Below, one piece after another: positions 11,769 to 57,946 of a stretch of 64,000 bases of DNA. Below the pieces are notes generated by a model that saw only the letters and a program-made list of their open reading frames with translations, did not search any database and had not been told where the DNA came from. A program made the translations under genes and the position numbers. The stretch lies in IMG/VR virus record IMGVR_UViG_3300014502_000004, positions 13,564 through 77,563 of that record. One strand, 5' to 3'. Position 1 is the stretch's first letter; the number at the start of each line of letters is the position of its first letter. The stretch is from a virus.

Positions 11769-11840
11769 GCCCGCATAGCTCAGTGGCAGAGCAATGGTTT
11801 TGTAAACCATAGGTCTGGGGTTCGATCCCCCAAGCGGGCT
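11769..11840 (+). tRNA. tRNA-Thr(TGT)
   Basis: Cloverleaf: GCCCGCA acceptor, TAGCTCAGTGGCAGAGC D-arm, ATGGT-TTTGTAA-ACCAT anticodon arm, TGGGG-TTCGATC-CCCCA T-arm; no encoded CCA. Confidence 0.92.
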
Positions 11841-11860
11841 CCGAAAGGTGAGTCATTGTA

Positions 11861-13459: not shown

Positions 13460-13488
13460 TTGACTCTAGAATCTGCCAGGCGTAGGAT
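13460..13488 (+). promoter_or_regulatory. sigma70-type promoter
   Basis: TTGACT-N17-TAGGAT in an intergenic gap. Confidence 0.65.
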
Positions 13489-14261: not shown

Positions 14262-14818
14262 GTGAGATAGCTGAAAAGGTTTACGTTGCTGTAGATGTGA
14301 ACAATCTATGGCACAGTTGTCGAGACATCTTTGGTTCGACAACAAGGGTGAACTATGACCAGCTCTTGAAGAAGATCAGAACTGGTGGTTACAGGGGTGT
14401 GCCCAGAGAAGTCACTGCAGTCGCCTACACCATCACATCCCCTCATCGTCGCACCTCTGAGACTGGCCGCACACGAGAAGAGCCCTCACGCAACTCACGC
14501 TTTCTAGAATCTCTCCAGAAGTTTGGCTACCAGGTGAAGACTAGGCAGATGAGATACGAGAAGGGTGTGGACAAACCATTCCACACTGACTGGGATGTGG
14601 GCATCTCAGTTGATGCAATCACTGATCAAGATCAGTTTGATACTTTCATCATGGTTAGTGGTGATGGTGATTTCATTCCATTGATTAAGAGGTTGCAGGA
14701 CAAAGATAAGAGAGTAGAAATCTATACTTTTGAGAGAACAGCTTCACAGAACTTATACTCTGTGGCTGACAACATCGTGTTTCTTACTGTAGAAGATACC
14801 TATCAAGAAAAGATATGA
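14258..14818 (+). CDS. NYN/LabA (PIN-like) domain protein
   Basis: VAVDVNN, DWDVGI.VD, SGDGDF.P, S..L...AD. Confidence 0.88.
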   Translation: MSEIAEKVYVAVDVNNLWHSCRDIFGSTTRVNYDQLLKKIRTGGYRGVPREVTAVAYTITSPHRRTSETGRTREEPSRNSRFLESLQKFGYQVKTRQMRYEKGVDKPFHTDWDVGISVDAITDQDQFDTFIMVSGDGDFIPLIKRLQDKDKRVEIYTFERTASQNLYSVADNIVFLTVEDTYQEKI

Positions 14819-17715
14819 GTCCACCAACTCCCAAGAGGACGCCTTACAAGCCCATTCAACAGGTGTCTCGGACACCTGTGCAGATACCTCAGACTGAGAG
14901 TGAGATCACCAAGCTCTTCTCTAACATCGCACCAGGTGGATTGAACCTCTCAGCTCTTGGGAATGTGCCTCAGTCAATCTCCGAAGAGGATGTCAAAGCT
15001 CTCACCAATGCCAACTTCGCTCTGTGGGCATCCACGAGTGGCATCAAAGTTGATCACAGACCATTTGATTTTGGACTCCATCGATATCTGTTGCCTCTAT
15101 ACTTAGATCAAGCTCAAGAGATCATCATGATGAAGGCAGCTCAGATGGGTGCAACCATCTGGGTGCTGCTGCGTTTGCTTCACTTCTGCATGAATAATGA
15201 TGCCAAGGCATGCCTGTTCTTCCCTACACAAGATGGTGTCACTCTATTATCTAAAGACCGCATGACACCACTAATTGATTCCAATGCTCAATTGAAAGAA
15301 GCTGTGAAGGACTCTGATACATTGGGTTACAAGCAGGTGGGAGCAAACAGTGCGCTCTACCTACGACACCTTGGTGGCATCGCATCAAAAGATTCTACAC
15401 CATTCGACATGCTGGCCTTTGATGAGGTGAGGCTTCTGAATGCAGCTGATATTGATCAGGCTCGTGAACGTGTTAGTCACAGTTCATTCAAGAACATTCT
15501 ACAGGTCAGCACTGCTGGCTACCCAAACTGTCTTCATGGTGATACTAAAGTCGTAGTTCGTAAGAAGTCTAACCGTCAGATTCTTCCAATGTCTATCGCT
15601 GATCTTCTTGTAACATATGATCAATATGAGGCCCTGTCTTACAATAGAAGGGGTGGTAATAGGCCACGATGGAGGTCAATTACTGGAGCAATATGCCGTG
15701 GTAAAAGATCCATGGTAAGAGTTGGACTATGGGGTGGGCATGAGATTCGTTGTACTGCTGATCATTGCTTCGCAACAGAGTGCTCTGTTCCTCGTGGTTT
15801 TGGAATCGATTGGTCTCCTATCTCTGAAGTGGAATTGGTTCCTAATAGATTTGGTGGTTATGTTGGACCAAGTAATGGAGTTCTAGTAGTAAACTCGATA
15901 CAAGACTATGAAAACAACCGATGGAATGAATTTGTAGTAGCCGCTCCTTATGACAAACTTACTCTGGCCATGGTGGGAGCTTTTGTGGCTGAGGGGACTC
16001 TGGGGCAGAGTGGAGAAGTACAGATCTGGCAGGCTTCACACAATTTGCCAATCAGAAATCTAGTAAAAGAGTGGGCTGATTGTCAGGGACTAACTTACCG
16101 TGGGAATGCTGAGGGAGTTTTTGTTCAGGCAAGGACAAGACCTGATCTTGTAGCTTTGTTTAGATCTTGTGGTGAAAATGCTTTGACAAAAGTTATTCCA
16201 GAGTCTGTTTTATCTGGAACCCCAGATCAGTTAGATATAGTTTTGAACTGGATTATAGAAGGTGATGGTCATAGACGATGTGAGAGAAAGAACTCTCATG
16301 AAAGTTGTCGTAAATGGGATATTTATACCTCTAGTGAGAGGCTTGCTTCACAGCTTAGGTTCATAGGTTTAAGAACCAATAAACCACACTCAATATCTAT
16401 TAGAGATCGTGACGGAGTACAAAGACAGTTTGTGTTGTCGTACAATCCGTCTGCGTTTAGAATGCAAGAGGTCTTGCCAGCTCTTGGTCGTCTCGCAGTA
16501 GGTGAACGAGTCCCTTGCGAAGATGACTACGCTTTTGATCTTGAGATTGAGGAGACCCCATGGTTTGTGCTAGCTGAGAGTGGATGTCTTGTTCATAACA
16601 GTGACATACATAAACAATTCCTAAGGGGTACGCAAAACTATTTCCACTCAAAATGCAATTGCCCAGACGGAATTGTGTTATCAGATGTATTCCCTGATTG
16701 CATCGCTACATCACCAAAGAAGGAAGTCTATTATCGATGTCCACGATGCAAGATGAAGATTGTTGATCCACAGAATGGTCGTTACATAGAGCATAACCCT
16801 GGTGCGCGAGTACAGAGCTATCACATCCATCAGATGTTGTCGAAGTTCATCTCTGCTGCCGAGATCTGGGAGGCTTATCAGATCACACAGAACGTCAAGG
16901 AGTTCTTCAACGCGAAGCTTGGCAAGCCTTACGTAGATGAGGACAACGTTCCTGTCACTGATGATGATCTTTTAGCATGTGAGAACACTGATCTGATGTG
17001 GGACCATGGCAAGACTCACACAGCCATGGGTGTAGATCAGATGAGTGGTCTTCTCTACATAACCATCTGTCAGCGATTTGGAAACAAGAAGAGAATTGTC
17101 CACTATGAGATTGTGGACGATATGAATCATATCTATTTTGAAGCTGGCAAGAGGCAGCCATCTTTCAAACGTCTCTATCAGCTCATGAAAGAGTTTGACG
17201 TAGATCTGTGCATCATTGATGCAATGCCTAACGCTAACGAAGCTATGGAGTTCGCACGAGCATTTCCCAAGCGTGTGTTCGTGGCCTGGTACCTTGAGCA
17301 ACAGCGTGAGGTAGCCCAGTGGGGCGACAGGCCCAAGCCCAAGGTGGCTGTGAGAAAAGGTGGACCCAAGATCAAATTCAAGCACAGCGTTCTGCTCAGT
17401 CGCTACCTCAGCATCGAAATGGCCATGAAAGAGATCGCTGACCGCAACGTGGAGTGGCCAAATCCCCGAGCCCTTGTGCAGATCTGTCGGAATCAAAAGA
17501 CAGGACACTTTGAGCCACTACACATCTTTGAGACTCACTTCTATCTACATTGCAAGTCCATTGTGAAACAGAAGACTATACTTGATGATGAGACTGGTCG
17601 ATTCAAGATGGAGTGGGTAAACCTTGGATTAGATCCCCATTCAGTGCATTCCTGGAATTACTGTAATATTGCTATGGAAAGGCTAAGAAGACAGCCAATC
17701 TTTACGATGGTGTAG
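14815..17715 (+). CDS. terL: Terminase large subunit (lambda gpA-like) containing an intein
   Basis: MKAAQMGAT Walker A, FDE Walker B, VST motif III, Cys cluster, FFNAKLGKPY, GVD nuclease. Confidence 0.9.
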   Translation: MSPPTPKRTPYKPIQQVSRTPVQIPQTESEITKLFSNIAPGGLNLSALGNVPQSISEEDVKALTNANFALWASTSGIKVDHRPFDFGLHRYLLPLYLDQAQEIIMMKAAQMGATIWVLLRLLHFCMNNDAKACLFFPTQDGVTLLSKDRMTPLIDSNAQLKEAVKDSDTLGYKQVGANSALYLRHLGGIASKDSTPFDMLAFDEVRLLNAADIDQARERVSHSSFKNILQVSTAGYPNCLHGDTKVVVRKKSNRQILPMSIADLLVTYDQYEALSYNRRGGNRPRWRSITGAICRGKRSMVRVGLWGGHEIRCTADHCFATECSVPRGFGIDWSPISEVELVPNRFGGYVGPSNGVLVVNSIQDYENNRWNEFVVAAPYDKLTLAMVGAFVAEGTLGQSGEVQIWQASHNLPIRNLVKEWADCQGLTYRGNAEGVFVQARTRPDLVALFRSCGENALTKVIPESVLSGTPDQLDIVLNWIIEGDGHRRCERKNSHESCRKWDIYTSSERLASQLRFIGLRTNKPHSISIRDRDGVQRQFVLSYNPSAFRMQEVLPALGRLAVGERVPCEDDYAFDLEIEETPWFVLAESGCLVHNSDIHKQFLRGTQNYFHSKCNCPDGIVLSDVFPDCIATSPKKEVYYRCPRCKMKIVDPQNGRYIEHNPGARVQSYHIHQMLSKFISAAEIWEAYQITQNVKEFFNAKLGKPYVDEDNVPVTDDDLLACENTDLMWDHGKTHTAMGVDQMSGLLYITICQRFGNKKRIVHYEIVDDMNHIYFEAGKRQPSFKRLYQLMKEFDVDLCIIDAMPNANEAMEFARAFPKRVFVAWYLEQQREVAQWGDRPKPKVAVRKGGPKIKFKHSVLLSRYLSIEMAMKEIADRNVEWPNPRALVQICRNQKTGHFEPLHIFETHFYLHCKSIVKQKTILDDETGRFKMEWVNLGLDPHSVHSWNYCNIAMERLRRQPIFTMV
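15529..16599 (+). mobile_element. Intein (357 aa) with LAGLIDADG homing endonuclease
   Basis: N-terminal C(LHGDT), block B CTADHCF, LAGLIDADG-like GAFVAEG and WIIEGDG, C-terminal LVHN followed by Ser+1. Confidence 0.93.
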
Positions 17716-19937: not shown

Positions 19938-20472
19938 GCTGAAGAAGTCTGGCATTCATGTTACCAATCTGACTCTGGATAGCACCAGAGATCCCCATAC
20001 CCATGTTGCTAAGAATACTCTACACCTAGAGCTTGTGCTGATCAAACTCGATCCGTTAGCACCTACGTACATTTCTCACAACTATCGTTGTCAAATGAAT
20101 GTTGATCTAGTCAAGTACGAAATACCACAACAATCAATGTCACTCGTACCACTTGTGTCGATTCCTCTCATGAAGCCAGGCGAAATGGTTGATCGAGTAG
20201 TCGACCCAAACAAGTTGGCTGGTTGGATGCCACCAAAGATCGACATGAAAGGAAAGCCTCTCACAGAAGAGGACATGGAAGAGGCAATCCGATTGGCGGC
20301 TGGACAGGAGCCATATTCAGACCCACGCTATAGTAGCTACATACCAGCCAAATCTACACATCACTGTGATGGTACTAATGTGAAAGCAAAGCCTAAGAAG
20401 AAGCCACCTAAGCGTACTGATACATACTGGAACATACGTGGCAAACCAAAGACCACAAAGCCAGCAAAGTAA
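19870..20472 (+). CDS. Hypothetical protein
   Basis: 200-aa ORF, start uncertain. Confidence 0.45.
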   Translation: MPPKSQSFQQPKLPLLLAHLTSELKKSGIHVTNLTLDSTRDPHTHVAKNTLHLELVLIKLDPLAPTYISHNYRCQMNVDLVKYEIPQQSMSLVPLVSIPLMKPGEMVDRVVDPNKLAGWMPPKIDMKGKPLTEEDMEEAIRLAAGQEPYSDPRYSSYIPAKSTHHCDGTNVKAKPKKKPPKRTDTYWNIRGKPKTTKPAK

Positions 20473-20476
20473 ACCA

Positions 20477-21040
20477 ATGCGTGGCTTCAAACGTGGTGAT
20501 CGTGTGCAGGTGCGCGGAGGCAGCGTGCTGCTTGGGGCATACGGTACAGTCGTGTCGGATGCAGGTCGAGGCTATGGCAAGGTGGACGTGATATTCCATG
20601 GTCATCCCAGACCACGATTGATGGATGCTTCACGATTGGTGGTGACTGAGGAATCAACACCAACTAGAGAAGATGAAATGAAGGCATTACTGGCCAATCT
20701 ACCACAGCCAGTGAAGCCTGTGAGCATACTATCTCCGCTCAACAGTGGTCCAACTCCACAACCAACAAAGCCATACACAGTAGCACCTAAGACACAATGG
20801 CAAATAGACAACGAGAATAGAGAACGCGAGCAAGCAAAAGTAACTCGTGAAGCAAGAGAGAAGCAGGTAGCTACATACAAGCAAGCCAAGGTCAAAGCCA
20901 AGGAAGTGCTGGCACGATTGAAGGAAGCATACCCCACACAAGCTGACTTAGATCGTGAGGAAGCATTCATACACATGAACTATGAAGTGTGGAAACGAAA
21001 GAACAAAGAACGATTGCAGCACGCCTATTGGAGCAAATGA
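20477..21040 (+). CDS. KOW/SH3-like domain protein
   Basis: FKRGDRVQV..G.VV..V.V.F pattern. Confidence 0.5.
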   Translation: MRGFKRGDRVQVRGGSVLLGAYGTVVSDAGRGYGKVDVIFHGHPRPRLMDASRLVVTEESTPTREDEMKALLANLPQPVKPVSILSPLNSGPTPQPTKPYTVAPKTQWQIDNENREREQAKVTREAREKQVATYKQAKVKAKEVLARLKEAYPTQADLDREEAFIHMNYEVWKRKNKERLQHAYWSK

Positions 21041-22704
21041 ACATGAAAGTTATCTACATTGCAGGTCCATTCCGAGACAAGCAAGGATTGATCGTACAAT
21101 GCAATCAGCAATGGCTGCGACAGAGGAAATGGCTAACAGAGCGACAAAGTTGCGAGGGTGATTCATGTCATACAAGATAGGTAAATTGCCACTAATACAA
21201 GTCAAGACAGAGTTTGAAGAGCACAACACTACACTGAAGGACACAATAAACAAAGCCATACATGCAGCGATGCTCAAAGGGTATCAGCCAACTATTCCGG
21301 CTCCCCAAAGGGTATCAACGCCTCCTAACTATCCAAATCCACCACTACATACAACTCAATTAGAGGTGGGCAGAGTAGTGATATACAAGCCATACCCAAA
21401 CAGTGTTGAAGAGCATACAGCAACGATTGTTGCAGGCCCATTTGATACACCATATGGTAAGTCTGACCCGGGATGGCAGATTAGACCAAACCATGGTGGC
21501 TCACCATACACGGTCCCACAAAGCAAGCTAATACTAACACCAACACCATACATACAAGCTTCAACACCACGAACGCCAGAGCAGCAAGACAAGATAACAC
21601 AAATCATACAGTTAATGCAGAACGGTCTCATTACAAAGGAGAAGGCAACAGAGCTTCTAAAGCCGCTTGGCTATTTCTTCACTCTGCCGCCTGCCATACC
21701 AGCCGAACCAGCTCCACAAGCCACCATACAAGCCCCCCAGAAGCCCCCACAAGCCACGCAAGCCATACATACAAGCCCGCTCACCGCTCGGGTGAAGCAA
21801 AGGGCTTTGAGAGCCTTTTGGGGCGCCGCAGAGGTTTCTAGAAACAAAGGCATACATACACAAGCCGCTTTAAAAGCCACATCTGAATGCCCCGGCTTAG
21901 ACCATTTAAAAGCCGCCATACAAGCCACGAAAGCTCCACATACAACTAACTCACAGGACATACGCAATCTAATAGCCCAATACCATGACCATACACTAAA
22001 CACTTACCCGTTCCCATGTGGGTCAATCATACAAGTCGCACTCGATGCTTTGAATCCAGCTCAGCTTAATATCGAGGCCCGTGTGCTATTCGATTACCTG
22101 CAACGGATATCTTGCCAACTAGGTTACTACATACATACTTCATTTGAGGAAACATCTAAGATTGGTGCCGAGGAATTGATTCGAAGGATAGAAGATTACC
22201 TCACACCATACATCCAAAATTGTCTATGTGGCCCACTTTACGGCATACCAATTGAGATAACCATACAATGGCACCTTCACGTTTTCGATCATGCAAGCGA
22301 AGTTCTGCAGGTCAAGCTATCGACGAACCACTAGAAGATCATCTGTCGTCTTACCACATACACTCACATACACGCTCTGCCATCACATACAAGCACCACT
22401 ACAATCGAGCAGTACAAGCCGTCAATTACCTTCACCATACAAGGTCTCTGTCGCTAGCTTGTCGAACCGGGTTTCAAGCTCCGGCCCTTCTCATACAAGG
22501 TCATACAATAGAATCTAGAATCTTCACTGATCTTGAAGATCTTAATCATCTTCCATACATACATAATCGTCACTCTCACTACGAACGATAAAAGCCACAA
22601 GCTAGTTCACCATACAAGCCGTCAAAGCATCGGCACCATACATACACTAGTCGTTTCAAGCTTGAACTGTTACTTTGCTTCACTCGATACACCATACATA
22701 CAAG
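20874..22704 (+). repeat. Dispersed co-oriented CATACAAG octamer (12 exact copies)
   Basis: Copies at 20874, 21169, 21551, 21725, 21768, 21917, 22028, 22386, 22436, 22492, 22611, 22697, plus many CATAC/CATACA. Confidence 0.85.
21165..22334 (+). CDS. Hypothetical protein with SH3-like domain
   Basis: IVAGPFD..YG...W...VP..L segment resembles the one in ORF 25083. Confidence 0.5.
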   Translation: MSYKIGKLPLIQVKTEFEEHNTTLKDTINKAIHAAMLKGYQPTIPAPQRVSTPPNYPNPPLHTTQLEVGRVVIYKPYPNSVEEHTATIVAGPFDTPYGKSDPGWQIRPNHGGSPYTVPQSKLILTPTPYIQASTPRTPEQQDKITQIIQLMQNGLITKEKATELLKPLGYFFTLPPAIPAEPAPQATIQAPQKPPQATQAIHTSPLTARVKQRALRAFWGAAEVSRNKGIHTQAALKATSECPGLDHLKAAIQATKAPHTTNSQDIRNLIAQYHDHTLNTYPFPCGSIIQVALDALNPAQLNIEARVLFDYLQRISCQLGYYIHTSFEETSKIGAEELIRRIEDYLTPYIQNCLCGPLYGIPIEITIQWHLHVFDHASEVLQVKLSTNH

Positions 22705-22754
22705 TCCAATCATACAGTAAGACAAAGCGAAGTAAATCCCCCATCATACATACA

Positions 22755-22870
22755 TGCATTCGCATTGCATAACGAATTGCATACGACATTGCAAAGCATC
22801 GCATTAGAGCACATTACAGAGCAAGCTCTTTCACAAGTCAAAAGCATCGCATTAGGTCGCATTGCATTGC
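22755..22870 (+). repeat. GCAT(T/C)-rich repeat block
   Basis: AAAGCATCGCATTAG direct repeat at 22793 and 22841, plus multiple GCATT. Confidence 0.7.
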
Positions 22871-22879
22871 CAGTCTAAG

Positions 22880-23070
22880 GGGCTACCTCAGGAGACAAGG
22901 ACAGAACAGAGTCAAAGGAGAGACAAGCTCCACACCAGTCAAGGGAAGAAGAGCAGAGACAAGGGAGCGAAGGACACAAGCCTACCAGGGCAAGCTCCAC
23001 AAGCAAGGAAGCAAGGCAAGCCTTCCTCCATGAGAGACAAGACAAGGAAGGCCACTAGAAGGCAAGCCAG
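22880..23070 (+). repeat. T-poor, purine-rich tract with GAGACAAG / CAAGCTCCACA repeats
   Basis: CAAGCTCCACA at 22924 and 22991; several GAGACAAG copies. Confidence 0.6.
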
Positions 23071-23546
23071 GGTTATTGAGAGCCCATTCTATTCGGTCCA
23101 GAGCTATCCTCTAGACTATCCTCCTCAATTGGCCCCAAGAGCCAGAGCGATTCACCCTCTCACGCGAGGGTGGGGGTCTGATAAGCACGTCAGGCCCTAG
23201 ACCACCCTTAGCCACAGGACTTCCCAAGAGATGGTGGTTTTTAATAGGTTTACCCTGTTGGCCAGACCAGGATGACCCTTTAAATGCAGCTCCTGGTAAC
23301 CCACTTTAAATGCCCCTACCCACGAATTCCCTAAAAGCACCCTTTCGTTTGGGCCAGAAAATATAATGTAGATTTTATTGTGATTTTGTTCTGCTAATAA
23401 AGATGGTTTTAATATGATATTCTAGAATCGTCATGTGCAGAAGGAATGCACATCTAGAATCTTGATGAGTTATTTAAATAGCGATGCCCAGGAACTTGAA
23501 TAAGCGATATCGGTTCTTAAAGGTAGGTCACCCCCAGAGGAAATGC

Positions 23547-23577
23547 TGTAAAACGATGGGTTGGGTTGTACTATAGG
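23547..23577 (+). promoter_or_regulatory. Conserved phage promoter-like motif, copy 2
   Basis: TGTAAAA-N12-TTGTACTATAGG at the head of the accessory gene array. Confidence 0.8.
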
Positions 23578-23592
23578 GTCTGGAGAGTAGAC

Positions 23593-24006
23593 ATGACTAG
23601 GAATACGAAGATACTAGGGATTTCAGTGAGCCGGTTGAGGAGGGTTCGATGCTACCTGACCCTGAAGGGAGCCCACAGGCTAAGTGCCTGCTCGCCTGCC
23701 ATGAAGCAGTGGAAGAGAGAGGGGTGGGGGAAGATAGAGGCAGGATGGATTCTGGAGAGGTTCATCAAACACTGCCCATGGTGTTTTGCCACGAACGCTC
23801 ATGATTTACTGAATAGATGTAGATGGGGTAACGGGGGTAGAGATTATAGATGGCTTGAAGGTACTGACCTATGCACCTGCGAAAACTGGGGTAACAGGAA
23901 CATGGTTGAGAGAGCCAGCAAAGCTGAGAAAGAGAAGCTCACTTTGCTATTGAGAGCTGTCATTATCAGGGCAAGTGAGAGTCTTGTAGATGAGCCGGAC
24001 CTGTGA
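23593..24006 (+). CDS. Hypothetical protein
   Basis: GGAG RBS, ATG 23593, first gene after promoter copy 2. Confidence 0.55.
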   Translation: MTRNTKILGISVSRLRRVRCYLTLKGAHRLSACSPAMKQWKREGWGKIEAGWILERFIKHCPWCFATNAHDLLNRCRWGNGGRDYRWLEGTDLCTCENWGNRNMVERASKAEKEKLTLLLRAVIIRASESLVDEPDL

Positions 24007-28972: not shown

Positions 28973-29081
28973 TGAGGGGTATAGGATTGAGCTTCTTCAA
29001 ACGGAGGAGTTTCTTAGACTGACGGGGTGTCACGAGGGTGAGTTATACTTTGCGATGCGTTGCAAGGTGTTCAAGAAGTAG
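28887..29081 (+). CDS. Hypothetical protein
   Basis: Overlaps the previous ORF and fills the gap. Confidence 0.4.
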   Translation: MSLPLVPKNPEEVRRAALLANQFLKFLDNEGYRIELLQTEEFLRLTGCHEGELYFAMRCKVFKK

Positions 29082-29084
29082 GAG

Positions 29085-29288
29085 ATGACGATGCAAACTA
29101 TTATTGTTGATTCGGACAAGCATGATCCCGACAGAATCATGATCACTATAAGAGAAGCCAGTGGTTTTGGTCACACTGTCAGAGTCGAGAAGATACTTAT
29201 ACCACAGTTGATTATTGATCTAGAACATCAACTTCCAGAAGAGTCAATAGTGGTTGACGACGAAGTAGGAGATGACGATGCAGGTTAG
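29085..29288 (+). CDS. Hypothetical protein
   Basis: AGGAG RBS. Confidence 0.55.
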   Translation: MTMQTIIVDSDKHDPDRIMITIREASGFGHTVRVEKILIPQLIIDLEHQLPEESIVVDDEVGDDDAG

Positions 29289-29724
29289 ACTTTCGCCAGG
29301 TGAGTCCGTGTTTGTGACTTTTGATGATGCTGACGGGTCAGACGACGGGATCAGAATCGAGTACGATGTCAATAGAAGCAACAAGTTGGTGTTAACAGCC
29401 AGCTACGAGGACGATGACGGTAGACACGGAGAGATCTACTGTGCTACCTTCGACGACGATCCCAAAATGAACCTTGGAAAGAAGATCACTTCTGTTGCAG
29501 ATGACCGGGATGAAGTCCTCAAGGTCATCATCTGCACCAGCTGCGGGGGCAAGTTTGACTTCACCAAAGGTGAAGAGCGTTTCATGAGGACGGTTTTCAA
29601 GGACAATTATCACGATCCAGTTCGCTGCCATCGTTGCCGAAAGATTCGGATGAGCCGTCGGCAGGAGGCAGAAAAGAAAGTCGATAATGATGAAGATCAA
29701 AAAGTGCCCGGTGACGATAATTGA
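29272..29724 (+). CDS. Protein with C-terminal CxxC...CxxC zinc ribbon (zf-trcl-like)
   Basis: CTSCGGKFDFTKGEERF...PVRCHRCR. Confidence 0.7.
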   Translation: MTMQVRLSPGESVFVTFDDADGSDDGIRIEYDVNRSNKLVLTASYEDDDGRHGEIYCATFDDDPKMNLGKKITSVADDRDEVLKVIICTSCGGKFDFTKGEERFMRTVFKDNYHDPVRCHRCRKIRMSRRQEAEKKVDNDEDQKVPGDDN

Positions 29725-30400
29725 AGGATTGATTGGGTCTGGTAAATCGACGTTGGCTAATGAACTTGGTGATGCTCTAGGACCAACAACTTTGGTTCTG
29801 AAGGAGCCTGACGAGAAGGGAGCAGCCAATCCCTACCTGGCTGACTACTACAAAGACTCCAAGAGATGGTCTCTGACCATGCAGCTTCATTTGTTGGGCA
29901 AGCGTTTCAGTATGCATCAGGATGCTCAGTGGCATGCTTTGAACGGCAGAGGCCCAGCTGTTCTTGATCGAAGCTATTATGGGGACACTTCTTTTGCTCG
30001 TGTTCAGAGATCAATGGGTTTGATGTCAGAGAGGGAGTTCGAGACATACCAGGTGCTCTACCATGAGATGACAGCCTTCGTTCTCTACCCAACATTCTGT
30101 GTCAGAATACTTGTTGATCCTGAAGTATGTAACCAAAGGATTCAAAACAGGATGGAGAAGGAGCAGGGAAGGAAGTGTGAGCAGGCGATTGACCTGGACT
30201 ACCTAAGAAATCTGGACAGAGAAATAGGTCATGTGGTATCAGTATTGAGGAGTCAGGGTGTGATCATCATCGATATGCCTTGGGACACAGACAGAGAAAC
30301 CAAAGAACAGCGTGAACGTTCAGTACAAAGCTTAGCGTCTAGAATCATGTCTGTTGATCCTCCAGATATGTTCCTGGACCTTCACCGAAGGACACTTTGA
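29687..30400 (+). CDS. Deoxynucleoside kinase
   Basis: IEGLIGSGKST, EP, NPYL..YY, DRSYYGD..F, RIQNR..R..E. Confidence 0.92.
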   Translation: MMKIKKCPVTIIEGLIGSGKSTLANELGDALGPTTLVLKEPDEKGAANPYLADYYKDSKRWSLTMQLHLLGKRFSMHQDAQWHALNGRGPAVLDRSYYGDTSFARVQRSMGLMSEREFETYQVLYHEMTAFVLYPTFCVRILVDPEVCNQRIQNRMEKEQGRKCEQAIDLDYLRNLDREIGHVVSVLRSQGVIIIDMPWDTDRETKEQRERSVQSLASRIMSVDPPDMFLDLHRRTL

Positions 30401-30813
30401 TGAATCAGTACGAGACAGTTGAGATTCTTGAGAAGATCGAGGGGTTAGTTAACAACCGACCTGTTTCCTTGGCTCTTGAGCTTCAATCGAAGATCAATGA
30501 GGATGGCAGGAAGGGTAATCCCTATCCGATTTTGAAGGTGAACATCAACGGGAGAGAGCAGTTCTACTTCATCGACATTGCTGAAAAGGTCCATGAGATG
30601 CTTGGGCAGCTTCTCCCCAAGGCGCTACAGATCAAGTCTGAGCACGACGCAGCTTTCAAGTCTCGCCGGGAAGCATGGGAGAAGCGTCAGCAGAGCAACC
30701 CCAATATTGGTCAGGGACGTATTGTGGTTCCTCCCCCAGTCGAAGAGGAGCCTGCCAAGCCTCCTCGTCGGAATGGGAAGGATAGAAGGGATAGGGACGA
30801 GCAGGACGATTGA
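30397..30813 (+). CDS. Hypothetical protein
   Basis: Coupled ORF. Confidence 0.6.
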   Translation: MMNQYETVEILEKIEGLVNNRPVSLALELQSKINEDGRKGNPYPILKVNINGREQFYFIDIAEKVHEMLGQLLPKALQIKSEHDAAFKSRREAWEKRQQSNPNIGQGRIVVPPPVEEEPAKPPRRNGKDRRDRDEQDD

Positions 30814-31124
30814 TGCTTCGCCATAGTTATCGTCGCCGCCCTGGGGTGACACATGACGACAGGATAAAGGCAGCCTGGCTCCAGGCCAAGTTTTCATCTT
30901 GGCCTCCTCACATTGGAACGAAGGTAAAGATGTGGTGGCCCGAGCTACGAGGGAAGGTAGCCCTTGTAGTGGCTACGGAGCAGTACATCAAGCTGGGGTT
31001 CAAGAGCGTTCGGGTTGGCACCAACAAGGTGCGAATTCAATGTGGGGCTTTGGTGGCTCTTGTGCGAGATGTTGATGTCTTTCCTCCTGAGTTCTCCGTC
31101 AAAGACATCTTGAAGATTCTCTAG
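30810..31124 (+). CDS. Hypothetical protein
   Basis: Coupled ORF. Confidence 0.55.
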   Translation: MMLRHSYRRRPGVTHDDRIKAAWLQAKFSSWPPHIGTKVKMWWPELRGKVALVVATEQYIKLGFKSVRVGTNKVRIQCGALVALVRDVDVFPPEFSVKDILKIL

Positions 31125-31216
31125 AACCGTATTCCATACTCCATCAGCTCAATCCTCGGTGTTGTAGGCCGGCTCGTTGATCATTCTAGGTTTCTAGAAA
31201 CTGTGGCGGTCAGTGG

Positions 31217-31232
31217 ACTACGCATGCGTAGT
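31217..31232. promoter_or_regulatory. Perfect 16-bp palindrome (candidate operator)
   Basis: ACTACGCATGCGTAGT in the intergenic region upstream of the histone promoter. Confidence 0.4.
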
Positions 31233-31333
31233 TAGGGACTTACCTTAACTACTGTTGGATAACTATTTGAAGTTATTGGGATATCTTCTGTAACCTCCGT
31301 AAAATGCCTCTTTAAAAGTAGAAAGAAAGGGGC

Positions 31334-31364
31334 TGTAAAATGCCTCTCTCGTTTGTACTATAGG
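31334..31364 (+). promoter_or_regulatory. Conserved phage promoter-like motif, copy 3
   Basis: TGTAAAA-N12-TTGTACTATAGG directly upstream of GGAGG RBS and the histone gene. Confidence 0.8.
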
Positions 31365-31382
31365 ATTACAGGAGGTTGACCC

Positions 31383-31559
31383 ATGATTCTTGTTGTGGTT
31401 TCCAAGCTTAAGGCGCTTGTTAAGGCTGGAGGTCTCAGAACTTCTGCTGAATTCGTAGAAGCTCTCAACTCCAAGGTGGCAGAAATTGTGATCCAAGCTG
31501 CCCAGAATTGCAAAGAAGACGGAGATCGAAAGACGCTGAAACCAAAAGATCTGGCTTGA
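31383..31559 (+). CDS. Bacterial-type histone-fold protein (Bd0055/HBb-like), 58 aa, not in ORF track
   Basis: MILVVVSKLKALVKAGGLRTSAEFVEALNSKVAEIVIQAAQNCKEDGDRKTLKPKDLA; LVV.SK.K, TSAE and RKT...D clamp; AGGAGG RBS. Confidence 0.88.
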   Translation: MILVVVSKLKALVKAGGLRTSAEFVEALNSKVAEIVIQAAQNCKEDGDRKTLKPKDLA

Positions 31560-31568
31560 GTTTTCTAG

Positions 31569-31597
31569 TTGACACTGGAGATGGTGTTAGCTAGGGT
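31569..31597 (+). promoter_or_regulatory. sigma70-type promoter
   Basis: TTGACA-N17-TAGGGT. Confidence 0.65.
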
Positions 31598-31603
31598 GGA
31601 GTT

Positions 31604-31795
31604 TCATGGCTGCTTGGTTTGATAGCACTTTGTTCTTTCCGCTGGTGCTAGTCACCAACCTGAGGATCAATAGTGTCAGTCGGAATCAAGTTTGTTGGTA
31701 TGAGCTGTGAAGAGTTACCTAGCCCGTAGCCCTCCCACAGCTCGCCAGCAGTAGGACGGGGAGGCACACCTGGCCAAATGGTGTCTCATTTTCTT
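31604..31795 (+). ncRNA. Candidate structured sRNA or leader (~190 nt)
   Basis: Two long hairpins (GCTTGGTTT/GAATCAAGT; TGTTGGT..GAGCTGTG/CACAGCTC-GCCAGCA) plus ACACC/GGTGT stem, after its own promoter. Confidence 0.45.
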
Positions 31796-31815
31796 CTTAC
31801 TATCTGGTGAAATTG

Positions 31816-32043
31816 ATGAATCCATATGGAACATCAGAGTGGACTGATGTTGATACATCTTCTCTCATCACTGGTCTTGGCATCATCGAAGATGATCTTG
31901 TGGTCAGATTCAAAAATGGTGATGCGTATTTATATCCAGGTCTTGCATCGGATTACAAAGCTCTACTCGAAGCGTCTTCCGCCGGAGGATATTTCCATCA
32001 GTGGGTCAGAAAACAACGATGTCAAAAGTTACCTAGAGAGTGA
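31816..32043 (+). CDS. KTSC domain protein
   Basis: SSLITGLG....L.VRFKNG..Y.Y...Y.ALL.ASS.G.YF...VR. Confidence 0.85.
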   Translation: MNPYGTSEWTDVDTSSLITGLGIIEDDLVVRFKNGDAYLYPGLASDYKALLEASSAGGYFHQWVRKQRCQKLPRE

Positions 32044-32050
32044 GGAATGC

Positions 32051-32266
32051 ATGGAAGTGATTGATCTTGTCAAGAGGAGGAAGGAAGATTTGTTTTTGCT
32101 AGGGTGTGCCAGGAAGTTGTTTCCGTGTGCAGAGGTGATTATTCCTGTTCCAGATCTACCCTCTATGATCATTTCGAGAGAAGGCGGGCTTATTGCCTAC
32201 GGTTGGGTCAACGAAAAGGGGCACGCTGAGTTCAAGTTGGCGGTCCCTCACGCGGAGCTGAGCTGA
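32051..32266 (+). CDS. Hypothetical protein
   Basis: GAGG RBS, ATG 32051. Confidence 0.5.
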   Translation: MEVIDLVKRRKEDLFLLGCARKLFPCAEVIIPVPDLPSMIISREGGLIAYGWVNEKGHAEFKLAVPHAELS

Positions 32267-32556
32267 TGCTGCTGGAAGATTGTCCTCTGTGCAAGCTGAT
32301 TGCAGAAAATCGATCTTTGCAGAAGGGGAATTACTGCTGCAAGATCGATAAGGACGGTAACACTCTTGTAGTGGGTTCTGATCACAAAGCCCATGCGGGT
32401 TTCCAGGGGTATTTAGAAGCTTGTGATCTCTTGCTTGGGGATGGAAAGTCTCCAGCCAATGGCATCATCAAAGAGGTCATGGATTGGCCTGGCCATTGGG
32501 CTGTGGAGCTGAAGATCCTCAGCGAGGGTGCTGGAAAATCTATCGCAAATTCTTGA
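32266..32556 (+). CDS. Hypothetical protein (CPLC)
   Basis: Coupled ORF. Confidence 0.55.
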   Translation: MLLEDCPLCKLIAENRSLQKGNYCCKIDKDGNTLVVGSDHKAHAGFQGYLEACDLLLGDGKSPANGIIKEVMDWPGHWAVELKILSEGAGKSIANS

Positions 32557-32582
32557 CAACTTCCTAGAAACTGGCGTAAGGT
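32553..32582 (+). promoter_or_regulatory. sigma70-type promoter
   Basis: TTGACA-N18-TAAGGT. Confidence 0.5.
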
Positions 32583-32614
32583 GATCTCTCTTGGGCTAGG
32601 TAAGCGAGATCTCC

Positions 32615-32842
32615 TTGTCACTATTCGACCAAACCACCTTTCCTGTTCCATTCGTCTGTCCACATTGCAACAAGAGTCTGTGGGAAGAGAACGGGGCTGT
32701 TCCTGTTTGTGGATGCCCAGAGTCTCAGGCTGCTGAAGTGAAGTTCCGTGAGGCCAGTAAGGCTCTAGCTCGACAGAGGCAGGAACAGGAGCCCTCATTC
32801 TTTGAGATCAGAATGATGAGAAAGTTGAGGACCAGACGATGA
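32615..32842 (+). CDS. Small zinc-ribbon protein
   Basis: CPHC...CGC. Confidence 0.5.
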   Translation: MSLFDQTTFPVPFVCPHCNKSLWEENGAVPVCGCPESQAAEVKFREASKALARQRQEQEPSFFEIRMMRKLRTRR

Positions 32843-33081
32843 TGTCCATGGTGCGCTGGTTTCTGATCCTTGTCGTGTTGAGTGGTTGTGGTTCACCTTG
32901 TCCGCAAATCAAAGACACTCGCTGTTCTGGGAGTGTTGTGCAGGTTTGTGGTTCCAACAAGAAGTGGCAGCGTGTTATGGACTGCTCACAGATCAAGGTG
33001 ATCAAAGCTGGTGTGCCACAGATATGGAACTGTTCTGAGGCGCCGGGCAAAGGTTGCACCTGTGTTCCGGGAGGTAAGTGA
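32839..33081 (+). CDS. Cys-rich lipoprotein
   Basis: Signal peptide with lipobox LSG-C; 8 further Cys. Confidence 0.7.
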   Translation: MMSMVRWFLILVVLSGCGSPCPQIKDTRCSGSVVQVCGSNKKWQRVMDCSQIKVIKAGVPQIWNCSEAPGKGCTCVPGGK

Positions 33082-33671
33082 TGCTTACTCAACAGAAGGT
33101 GGAAGATTTCTGGACTTTTATGCTGGGTAAGTTTGGAAGTTCAGTTGAGCAGAAGAACGATGCTTTAGTTATGCAGGTAGCTGCGGAACTTCTCAATGCT
33201 CTGAAGATTCAGGATAAGGATCAGTTCCTGAAGGATTTCGTAACCACTCTTTTCAATACGATATACATCCCATTCATAATTGGAGTTGAGGACAGTCGTT
33301 GGTCTCTTTGGGGTCAGGTACGGGTTTGTGTTCACGAGCATCAACACGTCATTCAAGGTGGAAGGGATGGATGGGCTCAATTTAGTTCGAAGTATCTTAC
33401 TTCATCATCATTTCGAGCAGGGTGCGAGGGAGAAGCTTTTGGGTGTGATCTAGAGATGGAGTTCTGGAGAACTGGTCAGATCCTGAATATTGATCAGAGG
33501 GCTTCTGTTTTGAAGGGGTATGGGTGCAGTGATGAGGACATTGAGATGGTGAAGCAGATGTTGAACATCAGAGCTGATGTAGTGAGACAGGGTGTGATTG
33601 AAACTGAATCAGCTAAGGTTGCCATTGATTGGTTAGAGGCTCATGTAGATGGGCTACGAGAGCTTCGGTAG
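33078..33671 (+). CDS. Putative zinc metallopeptidase-like protein
   Basis: HEHQH motif plus downstream E.EA. Confidence 0.55.
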   Translation: MMLTQQKVEDFWTFMLGKFGSSVEQKNDALVMQVAAELLNALKIQDKDQFLKDFVTTLFNTIYIPFIIGVEDSRWSLWGQVRVCVHEHQHVIQGGRDGWAQFSSKYLTSSSFRAGCEGEAFGCDLEMEFWRTGQILNIDQRASVLKGYGCSDEDIEMVKQMLNIRADVVRQGVIETESAKVAIDWLEAHVDGLRELR

Positions 33672-33695
33672 ATAAACTCAGATCGGAGGAAGACC

Positions 33696-34553
33696 ATGAA
33701 GATCAAGATCCAAGGTGAAATTCCGCAGCACATCATGGAAGAGGTGGAGAAGTTGAAGCCATCCTCCGATCCTGCATATTGGGCCAAGAAGGGATGCAAG
33801 GATTGCAATGGACGGGGGGTCATTGGAACCCAGACAACCACATTGAAGGGAAACAATAAGATCACCAACAGTCTTCTCTGTGTTTGCACCAGGAAGCGAT
33901 ACAAGGTGTGGGTCGAGAAGACGGCTGCAGAGGTGAAGGCGAAGCTCAGTTCCAATAGTGAGGAGAAGATCCAGAATGAGACTGTTCCTTCCAATGGGAA
34001 TGGGAAGAAGGAAGACGGTGAGAAGGCTCTACGGATTCGTCTGGAAAGCCTTGAGGATGCCATCAGCAGTGCCCGTGTTGAGATCACTCGTGAGGATAAG
34101 GAGATCAATTCCTATCCTCACCACAAGATTCTGGAGGAGATCGGTACTCGTCAGAAGGTTGCCAATGAAGATTACCAGAAAGCAGTAGGTCAAATAGAGG
34201 GGCTAGACAAGAAGGCTACTGATCTTCTGGAGCGTTCACAGCGTCTGCTGACAGCTGCCAAGAGCCTTGCTCGTGATGCAGACATTGTGCGTCAGGAGAA
34301 GGATGCTCTCTCCAGGACCACGGTGTCTGAGTGCAGAGTGACGCTGGAAACCATCCAGGCCGAGTACCGTGGTGTAGAGAAGGATCTGAATGAAAAGACG
34401 CACAAGGCTAAGCGTCGTCGACGTATCATTCTGGACAAGTTGGACAAGTTTCTGGATAGGCGTTGCAAGGTTATCCGAGAGGCTGGTTTCGATCCCACTA
34501 CTTTCGTTGAATCCATTGCTCTTGAGACTGATGAGTCAACTTCAGATTCCTAA
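33696..34553 (+). CDS. Zinc-finger + coiled-coil protein
   Basis: CKDCNGRG...CVC, long heptad region. Confidence 0.65.
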   Translation: MKIKIQGEIPQHIMEEVEKLKPSSDPAYWAKKGCKDCNGRGVIGTQTTTLKGNNKITNSLLCVCTRKRYKVWVEKTAAEVKAKLSSNSEEKIQNETVPSNGNGKKEDGEKALRIRLESLEDAISSARVEITREDKEINSYPHHKILEEIGTRQKVANEDYQKAVGQIEGLDKKATDLLERSQRLLTAAKSLARDADIVRQEKDALSRTTVSECRVTLETIQAEYRGVEKDLNEKTHKAKRRRRIILDKLDKFLDRRCKVIREAGFDPTTFVESIALETDESTSDS

Positions 34554-57917: not shown

Positions 57918-57946
57918 TTGACGGCTTTTTCTTCGATCTGTAGGTT
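57918..57946 (+). promoter_or_regulatory. sigma70-type promoter of the protease/capsid operon
   Basis: TTGACG-N17-TAGGTT. Confidence 0.6.

Follow-up and report, generated by a model that had tools for sequence, protein, structure and literature searches.

A 58-residue histone-fold protein of the HBb/Bd0055 type encoded by an uncultured SPO1-like phage

Histone-like proteins of the Bd0055 type can be encoded by tailed phages, and a very short ORF found in a viral contig from the IMG/VR collection raises the question of whether its product is one of them, to which kind it belongs and what use a phage could make of it. To our knowledge, bacterial histones have been recognised only in 2023-2025, bench work has been carried out on two of them (HBb and HLp), and phage copies come from computer surveys only. 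The ORF is located at 31383-31559 of a stretch of 64,000 nucleotides of the record IMGVR_UViG_3300014502_000004, called here the window. A preliminary description of the window had assigned to it a phage-encoded bacterial histone of the Bd0055/HBb type. The assignment is supported by the sequence, by the profile search, by the predicted fold and dimer and by the conserved DNA-contact residues, and phage hallmark genes are found on both sides of the ORF. The further ideas of that description, namely that the histone chromatinises or coats the phage genome, shields it from nucleases or interferes with host chromatin, did not gain support.

The record, a virus contig of IMG/VR, measures 77,563 bp and is about 53% complete according to CheckV. 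All genes lie on one strand, and encode among others a DNA polymerase A, a SbcC-like nuclease, the large terminase (TerL), a portal protein, a deoxynucleoside kinase and a KTSC protein. The presence in a virus contig of DNA polymerase, SbcC, large terminase and portal genes assigns the histone gene to a member of the Caudoviricetes. The portal is about 40% identical to portals of SPO1-group Herelleviridae, and the record is a fragment of the genome of a distant SPO1-like myovirus, large, tailed and uncultured. No DNA-level similarity was found in GenBank phages; 29 IMG/VR contigs encode portals 51-75% identical to that of the record. The histone gene is found 5.3 kb upstream of the portal gene, at the edge of the head module, in the variable region bordered by this and the DNA-metabolism module. 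In both G+C and GC3 the gene matches the phage genes around it (46-49% G+C in the phage). It is the sole histone-fold ORF in the record; as about half of the genome is missing, the missing part might encode a further histone or some other nucleoid protein.

Some other features of the window deserve mention. The large terminase ORF (14815-17715) encodes 966 aa, and PHROG terminase matches are confined to residues 98-238 and 593-959, a pattern that suggests either an insertion (an intein or a homing element?) or an extra domain between the matched parts. The interval 20001-24000 is the only stretch with negative GC skew, features an AT skew up to 0.30, and is located just before the motif copy at 23547 described below; the change in skew may mark a genome end or an origin. 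No Rfam families were detected in the window beyond one tRNA:

11769-11842, tRNA-Thr with anticodon TGT, sole tRNA of the window

The histone ORF stands alone between non-coding gaps of 258 nt upstream and 247 nt downstream. The elements identified in and around it are the following:

31228..31252, + strand, 10-bp stem-loop in the 258-nt gap 5' of the histone gene; an inverted repeat, also present in the MFE fold
31299..31311, + strand, additional exact copy of the 13-nt box GTAAAATGCCTCT, 36 nt 5' of the box included in the bipartite motif
31334..31364, + strand, bipartite promoter-like motif TGTAAAA-N12-TTGTACTATAGG, one of 3 copies in the record; includes the second copy of GTAAAATGCCTCT
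31370-31375, + strand, Shine-Dalgarno sequence AGGAGG, 7 nt 5' of the ATG
31383..31559, + strand, histone ORF, ATG start, 58 codons (58 aa); alpha3-truncated histone-fold protein of the HBb/Bd0055 type
31563..31597, + strand, 14-bp hairpin directly 3' of the histone stop codon; overlaps a TTGACA-N18-TAGGGT site at 31569-31597

The AGGAGG ribosome binding site reported in the preliminary description was found by direct reading of the sequence. In the same description the gene was defined as hidden. This is correct as far as the ORF falls under a 60-aa cut-off, and not in a wider sense, the exact protein being already public, with no name attached, in 5 contigs of the NCBI, JGI/IMG, ENA and Logan collections. 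The upstream stem-loop possibly corresponds to the end of the preceding transcription unit, as a putative terminator; no run of T residues follows it. Folding of the upstream intergenic RNA is modest (z -2.5). The hairpin adjoining the stop codon is a candidate 3' stabiliser, terminator or promoter of the next unit. The gap from the histone to the KTSC gene (31560-31806, 247 nt) can form several long hairpins, at a z score of -1.6 versus shuffles, which is not significant.

The histone gene had also been credited with its own copy of a phage promoter. The motif is real, and its activity as a promoter, as well as the timing of that activity, are inferred from sequence alone. The 31-nt motif TGTAAAA-N12-TTGTACTATAGG has three copies in the 77,563-bp record as a whole, each on the + strand and shortly before a gene start. 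Their coordinates in the window are as follows:

2844-2874, + strand, copy preceding a unit that includes genes for SSB (phrog_1192) and a UvsX-like recombinase (phrog_97)
23547-23577, + strand, copy of the motif
31334-31364, + strand, copy preceding the histone gene

Three matches to the 16-mer core of the motif were obtained in none of 100 shuffles. Both this and the location of all copies before gene starts mark the motif as a real, non-random feature. The 13-nt box GTAAAATGCCTCT is found as exact copy only twice in the window (31299 and 31335), both times 5' of the histone gene. The motif reads as a sigma-70-like pair, with TGTAAA and TACTAT set apart by a 16-nt spacer, and is not present in the relative G001 described below. 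The involvement of a T7-like RNA polymerase was considered for a motif ending in ACTATAGG; PF00940 had no match in the record, nor did it have matches in the control genomes, and the negative result therefore carries little weight. A 175-aa ORF located 5' of the window (G000:C1:7807-8334) features a weak Sigma70_r2-like match (E 1.3e-5; 21.6 bits, under the 24-bit Pfam cut-off), and is a candidate for a phage-encoded sigma factor, such as those of SPO1-like phages. A second class of promoter-like sites, fitting TTGAC-N18-TAGGNT, was found at 13460-13488, 31569-31597 and 57918-57946 of the window. All three sites are on the + strand and none on the - strand, versus 0.28 sites expected from shuffles. 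The site at 31569-31597 begins 10 nt past the histone stop codon.

Contigs from four RNA libraries map to the region 29000-34000. One of these, 446 nt long and derived from a peat library, spans 31339-31784 at 100% identity, and takes in the whole histone ORF plus sequences of the downstream gap. Metatranscriptome contigs convey no strand, ends or level, may result from DNA carry-over, and gaps in their upstream cover are uninformative; the contig is therefore compatible with transcription of the gene and is not counted as proof of it.

The encoded protein has a mass of 6.2 kDa, a pI of 9.3 and a net charge of +3. When all PDB chains were searched by phmmer, the first match was HBb/Bd0055 (8fvx, 8cmp; E 3.1e-6), residues 2-57 of the query aligning to residues 4-59 of HBb. 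The second was HLp of Leptospira perolatii (9qt0; E 1.5e-5). The end-to-end likeness to HBb, and the motifs LVV.SK.K, TSAE and DG-RKT...D listed in the preliminary description, are all visible in the HMMER alignment. When 1.84 billion representative proteins were scanned in full with HMMER, 90 relatives were obtained at E<=1e-3, the closest being 60% identical. They comprise singlets (58-111 aa) and, among the more distant matches, doublets of two folds (118-279 aa). The profile derived from 49 singlets recognizes HLp (4e-20, 74.9 bits), HBb (1e-19, 73.4 bits) and HTkC (3e-18), and more weakly HmvA, the Methanopyrus histone, HMfA/B and NF-YB. Eleven of the relatives match the Pfam family CBFD_NFYB_HMF and three match DUF1931; the 58-aa protein itself has a sub-threshold match to PF00125 only (E 0.016).

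Other searches were less rewarding. PHROGs includes no family for the protein, no match was obtained by tblastn in 50,697 GenBank phage records at E<=1, and a word-indexed protein search retrieved nothing besides the protein itself. Scans for related loci with the single protein as query were similarly negative, and relatives were found using a 3-sequence alignment. Matches in the ESM Atlas are to unnamed clusters only, in which a few members are labelled Spirochaetota or Krumholzibacteriota, a lead and nothing more. Uncharacterised proteins of "uncultured Caudovirales" in BFVD share the fold (TM 0.81-0.86).

The fold and dimer check by AlphaFold suggested in the preliminary description gave a positive outcome. 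The AlphaFold2 model based on the family alignment has a pLDDT of 95, and features helices at residues 6-15, 22-45 (24 aa) and 54-57 (4 aa, a single turn). The model has thus the alpha1-L1-alpha2-L2-alpha3 layout, with short alpha3 and alpha2, of alpha3-truncated histones. In these, according to Schwab et al. 2024, alpha3 is cut to 3-4 residues, and alpha2 is 4-5 residues shorter than in nucleosomal histones (PMC11390915). Top Foldseek matches in the PDB are histones throughout, all of the alpha3 type; HLp is listed first (TM 0.84), HBb has a TM of 0.91 and an rmsd of 1.0 A, and HTkC a TM of 0.85. A homodimer is predicted with an ipSAE of 0.88 in all three runs, versus 0.10 for the best of three controls; this mark was attained by 20 of the 30 proteins known as one-chain pairs from solved structures, and by 1 of the 23 known as single chains. 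The partner chain has a pLDDT of at least 93, and contacts are 100% concordant between runs. They join L1 (residues 18-21) with L2 (49-54), and the two chains also meet at residue 32 of each, as in a histone handshake. Since HBb dimers are already solved, the prediction is to be taken as likeness and not as independent proof. The 58-aa protein very probably forms a dimer and bends DNA.

Histones with truncated alpha3 come in different kinds. [quoted passage not shown] In the protein described here, K8, K10 and K14 on alpha1 align to K10, K12 and K16 of HBb, and R49-K50-T51...D56 aligns to R51-K52-T53...D58, so that the RD clamp is kept. The auxiliary clamp residue D49 of HBb is retained as D46. 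The positions of the FtF Arg and Asn are occupied by N42 and G47, as shown by alignment to HLp (9qt0). The chain ends one residue past alpha3 and includes no extra domain, and is a single fold of 58 aa, not the pair of folds per chain of DUF1931/pseudodimeric histones. Alpha1 lysines, RKT...D, N42/G47 and the lack of sequences after alpha3 place the protein with HBb and not with the Schwab "phage histones". The margin of the assignment to the HBb type is small, HBb and HLp being scored nearly equal by the family profile.

Ten main DNA-contact residues have been singled out in HBb by Hu et al., N22, R57, S9, T53, T8, S24, K10, K12, K52 and K16 (PMC11317129). Seven are identical in the phage protein (S9, T53, S24, K10, K12, K52 and K16), two are replaced by basic residues (N22 by R19, R57 by K55), and the tenth, T8, has become V6. 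Of the most conserved columns of the family (S7, K8, L28 and T51), all except L28 are contact residues. HBb contacts the DNA backbone only and has no sequence preference, and in later work bending by dimers is preferred to coating (PMC11317129), a bending reported to be "similar to HU/IHF" (PMC11390915).

Compared in more general terms to HBb of Bdellovibrio bacteriovorus (PDB 8fvx, 8fw7, 8cmp, 9ezz, 9f0e; PMC11317129), the protein is about 35% identical end to end. Shared features include the shortened alpha2, the one-turn alpha3, the RKT...D clamp with the extra Asp, Ser and Lys residues of alpha1, Thr-Ser of L1 and the homodimer, here predicted. The phage-encoded protein differs because no residues follow alpha3 in its 58 aa, while HBb runs about 5 residues further, L1 is one residue shorter and L2 one residue longer (D48), and Val and Arg replace T8 and N22. 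The same truncated fold, with TM values of 0.84-0.85 and comparable profile scores, is found in HLp (PDB 9qt0-2) and in HTkC of Thermococcus kodakarensis (PDB 9f2c). In contrast to the phage protein with its N42 and G47, both form stable, DNA-wrapping tetramers through the interface Arg and Asn. The Schwab "phage histones" (PMC11390915) are similar in that they have an alpha3-type fold and are encoded by tailed-phage contigs, and differ for the C-terminal tetramerisation domain, missing here, and the lack of RxTxxxD, present here as RKT...D.

The closest known set is made of Bd0055-like histone-fold proteins of Caudoviricetes ("BBVHFP"; 84 bacterial-like proteins), described in hLife in 2025 from IMG/VR 4 by structure prediction only (PMC13681535). 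The 58-aa protein belongs to the same class, being encoded by an IMG/VR tailed-phage contig, resembling Bd0055 in sequence and fold, and being a predicted dimer. For the class no confident higher oligomer was obtained; modelling of the 58-aa protein covered the dimer. In proteins of the set the flexible loop of Bd0055 is replaced by a helix at the C-terminus, while the 58-aa protein stops after alpha3. Phage Bd0055-like histone genes were already catalogued computationally in 2024-2025, and the present gene is a further example and not a new kind. No bench study of any phage copy was found in the literature.

Homologues are also encoded by two close relatives of the phage. In G001 (115 kb, portal 71% identical) a 68-aa homologue, 48% identical and carrying an acidic tail, is found in a syntenic neighbourhood, where KTSC and five more genes are shared. 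In G005 (76 kb) a 69-aa homologue is encoded on the opposite strand, and the clamp reads M..H, not R..D. Three relatives that are more distant, with near-complete genomes (94-98%, 162-171 kb), were found to have no histone homologue, which indicates that the histone is an accessory gene of one sub-lineage, dispensable for this type of phage. A short acidic C-terminal tail, missing in the 58-aa protein, is present in several of the closest relatives (examined were L002:7992-8198, L038:1495-1704, P0002, P0003, P0007 and P0014), including the G001 copy. The replacement of the clamp Arg and Asp by Met and His was noted, besides G005, in the metagenomic proteins P0014, P0016 and P0039. The KTSC-domain gene found downstream of the histone gene (window 31807-32043; Pfam E 2.8e-6) has a counterpart in G001 (L002:9618-9860, 46% identical). 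Another KTSC homologue, 53% identical, is present in L015, a contig that begins too near to it to reveal an upstream histone gene.

The 5-kb stretch around the histone gene is present in peat and permafrost metagenomes from 17 studies. In a pattern-limited scan of GTDB genomes, relatives were found only in three Elusimicrobia MAGs, 49-53% identical. These are the only named bacterial relatives found, and have a G+C content of 68-69%, versus 46-49% in the phage. Among the 54 family members placed in a maximum-likelihood tree, neither the two phage relatives nor those of the Elusimicrobia clade group with the query. Only 4 of 51 branches are well supported, and consequently the tree does not point to any donor or host, and speaks neither for nor against the histone-bearing host hinted at in the preliminary description.

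As to function, the protein probably works as an HBb-type homodimer which binds the DNA backbone non-specifically, bends DNA, and is nucleoid-associated on the intracellular pool of phage DNA. According to this model, two chains would clasp in a histone handshake, alpha2 helices crossing each other and L1 of one chain pairing with L2 of the other. The dimer would show to the DNA backbone the N-terminus of alpha1 (S7, K8, K10 and K14), L1 (R19, T20 and S21) and the KT of L2 (K50 and T51), held in place by the R49-D56 clamp. As conserved residues would be those presented to the backbone, binding without sequence preference and bending are expected as in HBb. Within the phage the gene would work as a stand-alone cassette, made up of hairpin, promoter-like motif, strong ribosome binding site, ORF and hairpin. 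An abundant nucleoid-associated protein may be produced in this way along with the products of DNA-metabolism genes, the motif being common to the SSB/UvsX-like unit, and could organise or compact phage DNA undergoing replication and recombination.

The same dimer might be directed to the host, either to help shut off its nucleoid or to poison its chromatin by the formation of mixed dimers, provided that an HBb-like histone is present in the host. Dimerisation is obligate for histone folds, and heterodimers can form between close paralogues. HBb is essential in Bdellovibrio (PMC12701072), and the histone gene is accessory in the phage group, as host-directed genes often are. Yet there is no sign that the host carries a histone, non-specific backbone contacts cannot distinguish host from phage DNA, and no host-takeover genes were found adjacent. 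Action on the host looks unlikely on the whole. Less likely still is that the protein forms FtF tetramers wrapping about 60 bp of DNA, as Leptospira HLp or archaeal HTkC. The order of matches by profile, in which HLp is placed marginally over HBb, and by Foldseek would fit this arrangement, but N42 and G47 are found where tetramers have R48 and N52 (PMC11390915), the best match of the single sequence is HBb, and L2 reads DG-D-RKT, similar to DG-RKT of HBb.

A role in the virion and a role in transcription have also been weighed, and are both very improbable. Location near the portal gene, small size and basic charge are what could be expected of an internal protein packaged to condense DNA, or injected to protect it, in the style of Marseilleviridae, which package their own histones. 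Arguing against packaging, the upstream motif is shared with DNA-metabolism genes and not with structural ones, the protein has no signal, propeptide or extra domain, and relatives with the same head genes lack the histone. Slightly lower in rank comes the selective regulation of transcription of the phage programme. SPO1 encodes the DNA-bending protein TF1, of the HU type, and the SPO1-like portal makes the analogy attractive. TF1 and phage proteins of the HU/IHF type (PF00216) are small, basic and dimeric DNA benders of large myoviruses, and HBb bends DNA much as HU/IHF do (PMC11390915); the analogy is functional only, fold and sequence being unrelated. No PF00216 gene was found in the record or in five relatives, which counts in favour of such a role. 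The pattern of a histone replacing HU/TF1 was nevertheless rejected, because PF00216 is absent with or without the histone, and relatives lacking the histone lack HU as well, so that there is no either/or distribution. In addition, the backbone-only contacts and missing sequence preference of HBb (PMC11317129) do not suit a selective regulator. A nucleoid-associated homodimer on phage DNA is the preferred reading.

The gene leaves existing knowledge of phage Bd0055-like histones unchanged. A bolder extension of the preferred reading, speculative and with little probability assigned to it, is a phage chromatin programme, in which a phage-specific class of promoters would induce together histone, SSB and UvsX-like recombinase, and the histone would coat or shape replicating phage DNA. 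If true, this could keep host nucleases away from the DNA, or guide packaging and recombination-dependent replication, and the phage would be the first bacteriophage to put a true histone to use on its own genome. The 58-aa copy is near to the lower size limit of the family, is easily synthesised and has retained nearly every DNA-contact residue. It is encoded in a clean expression cassette, under an upstream motif in common with recombination genes, by a phage recurrent in peat metagenomes of many studies. Small size, kept contacts, clean cassette and recurrent phage make it a convenient test case for what use a histone is to a phage.
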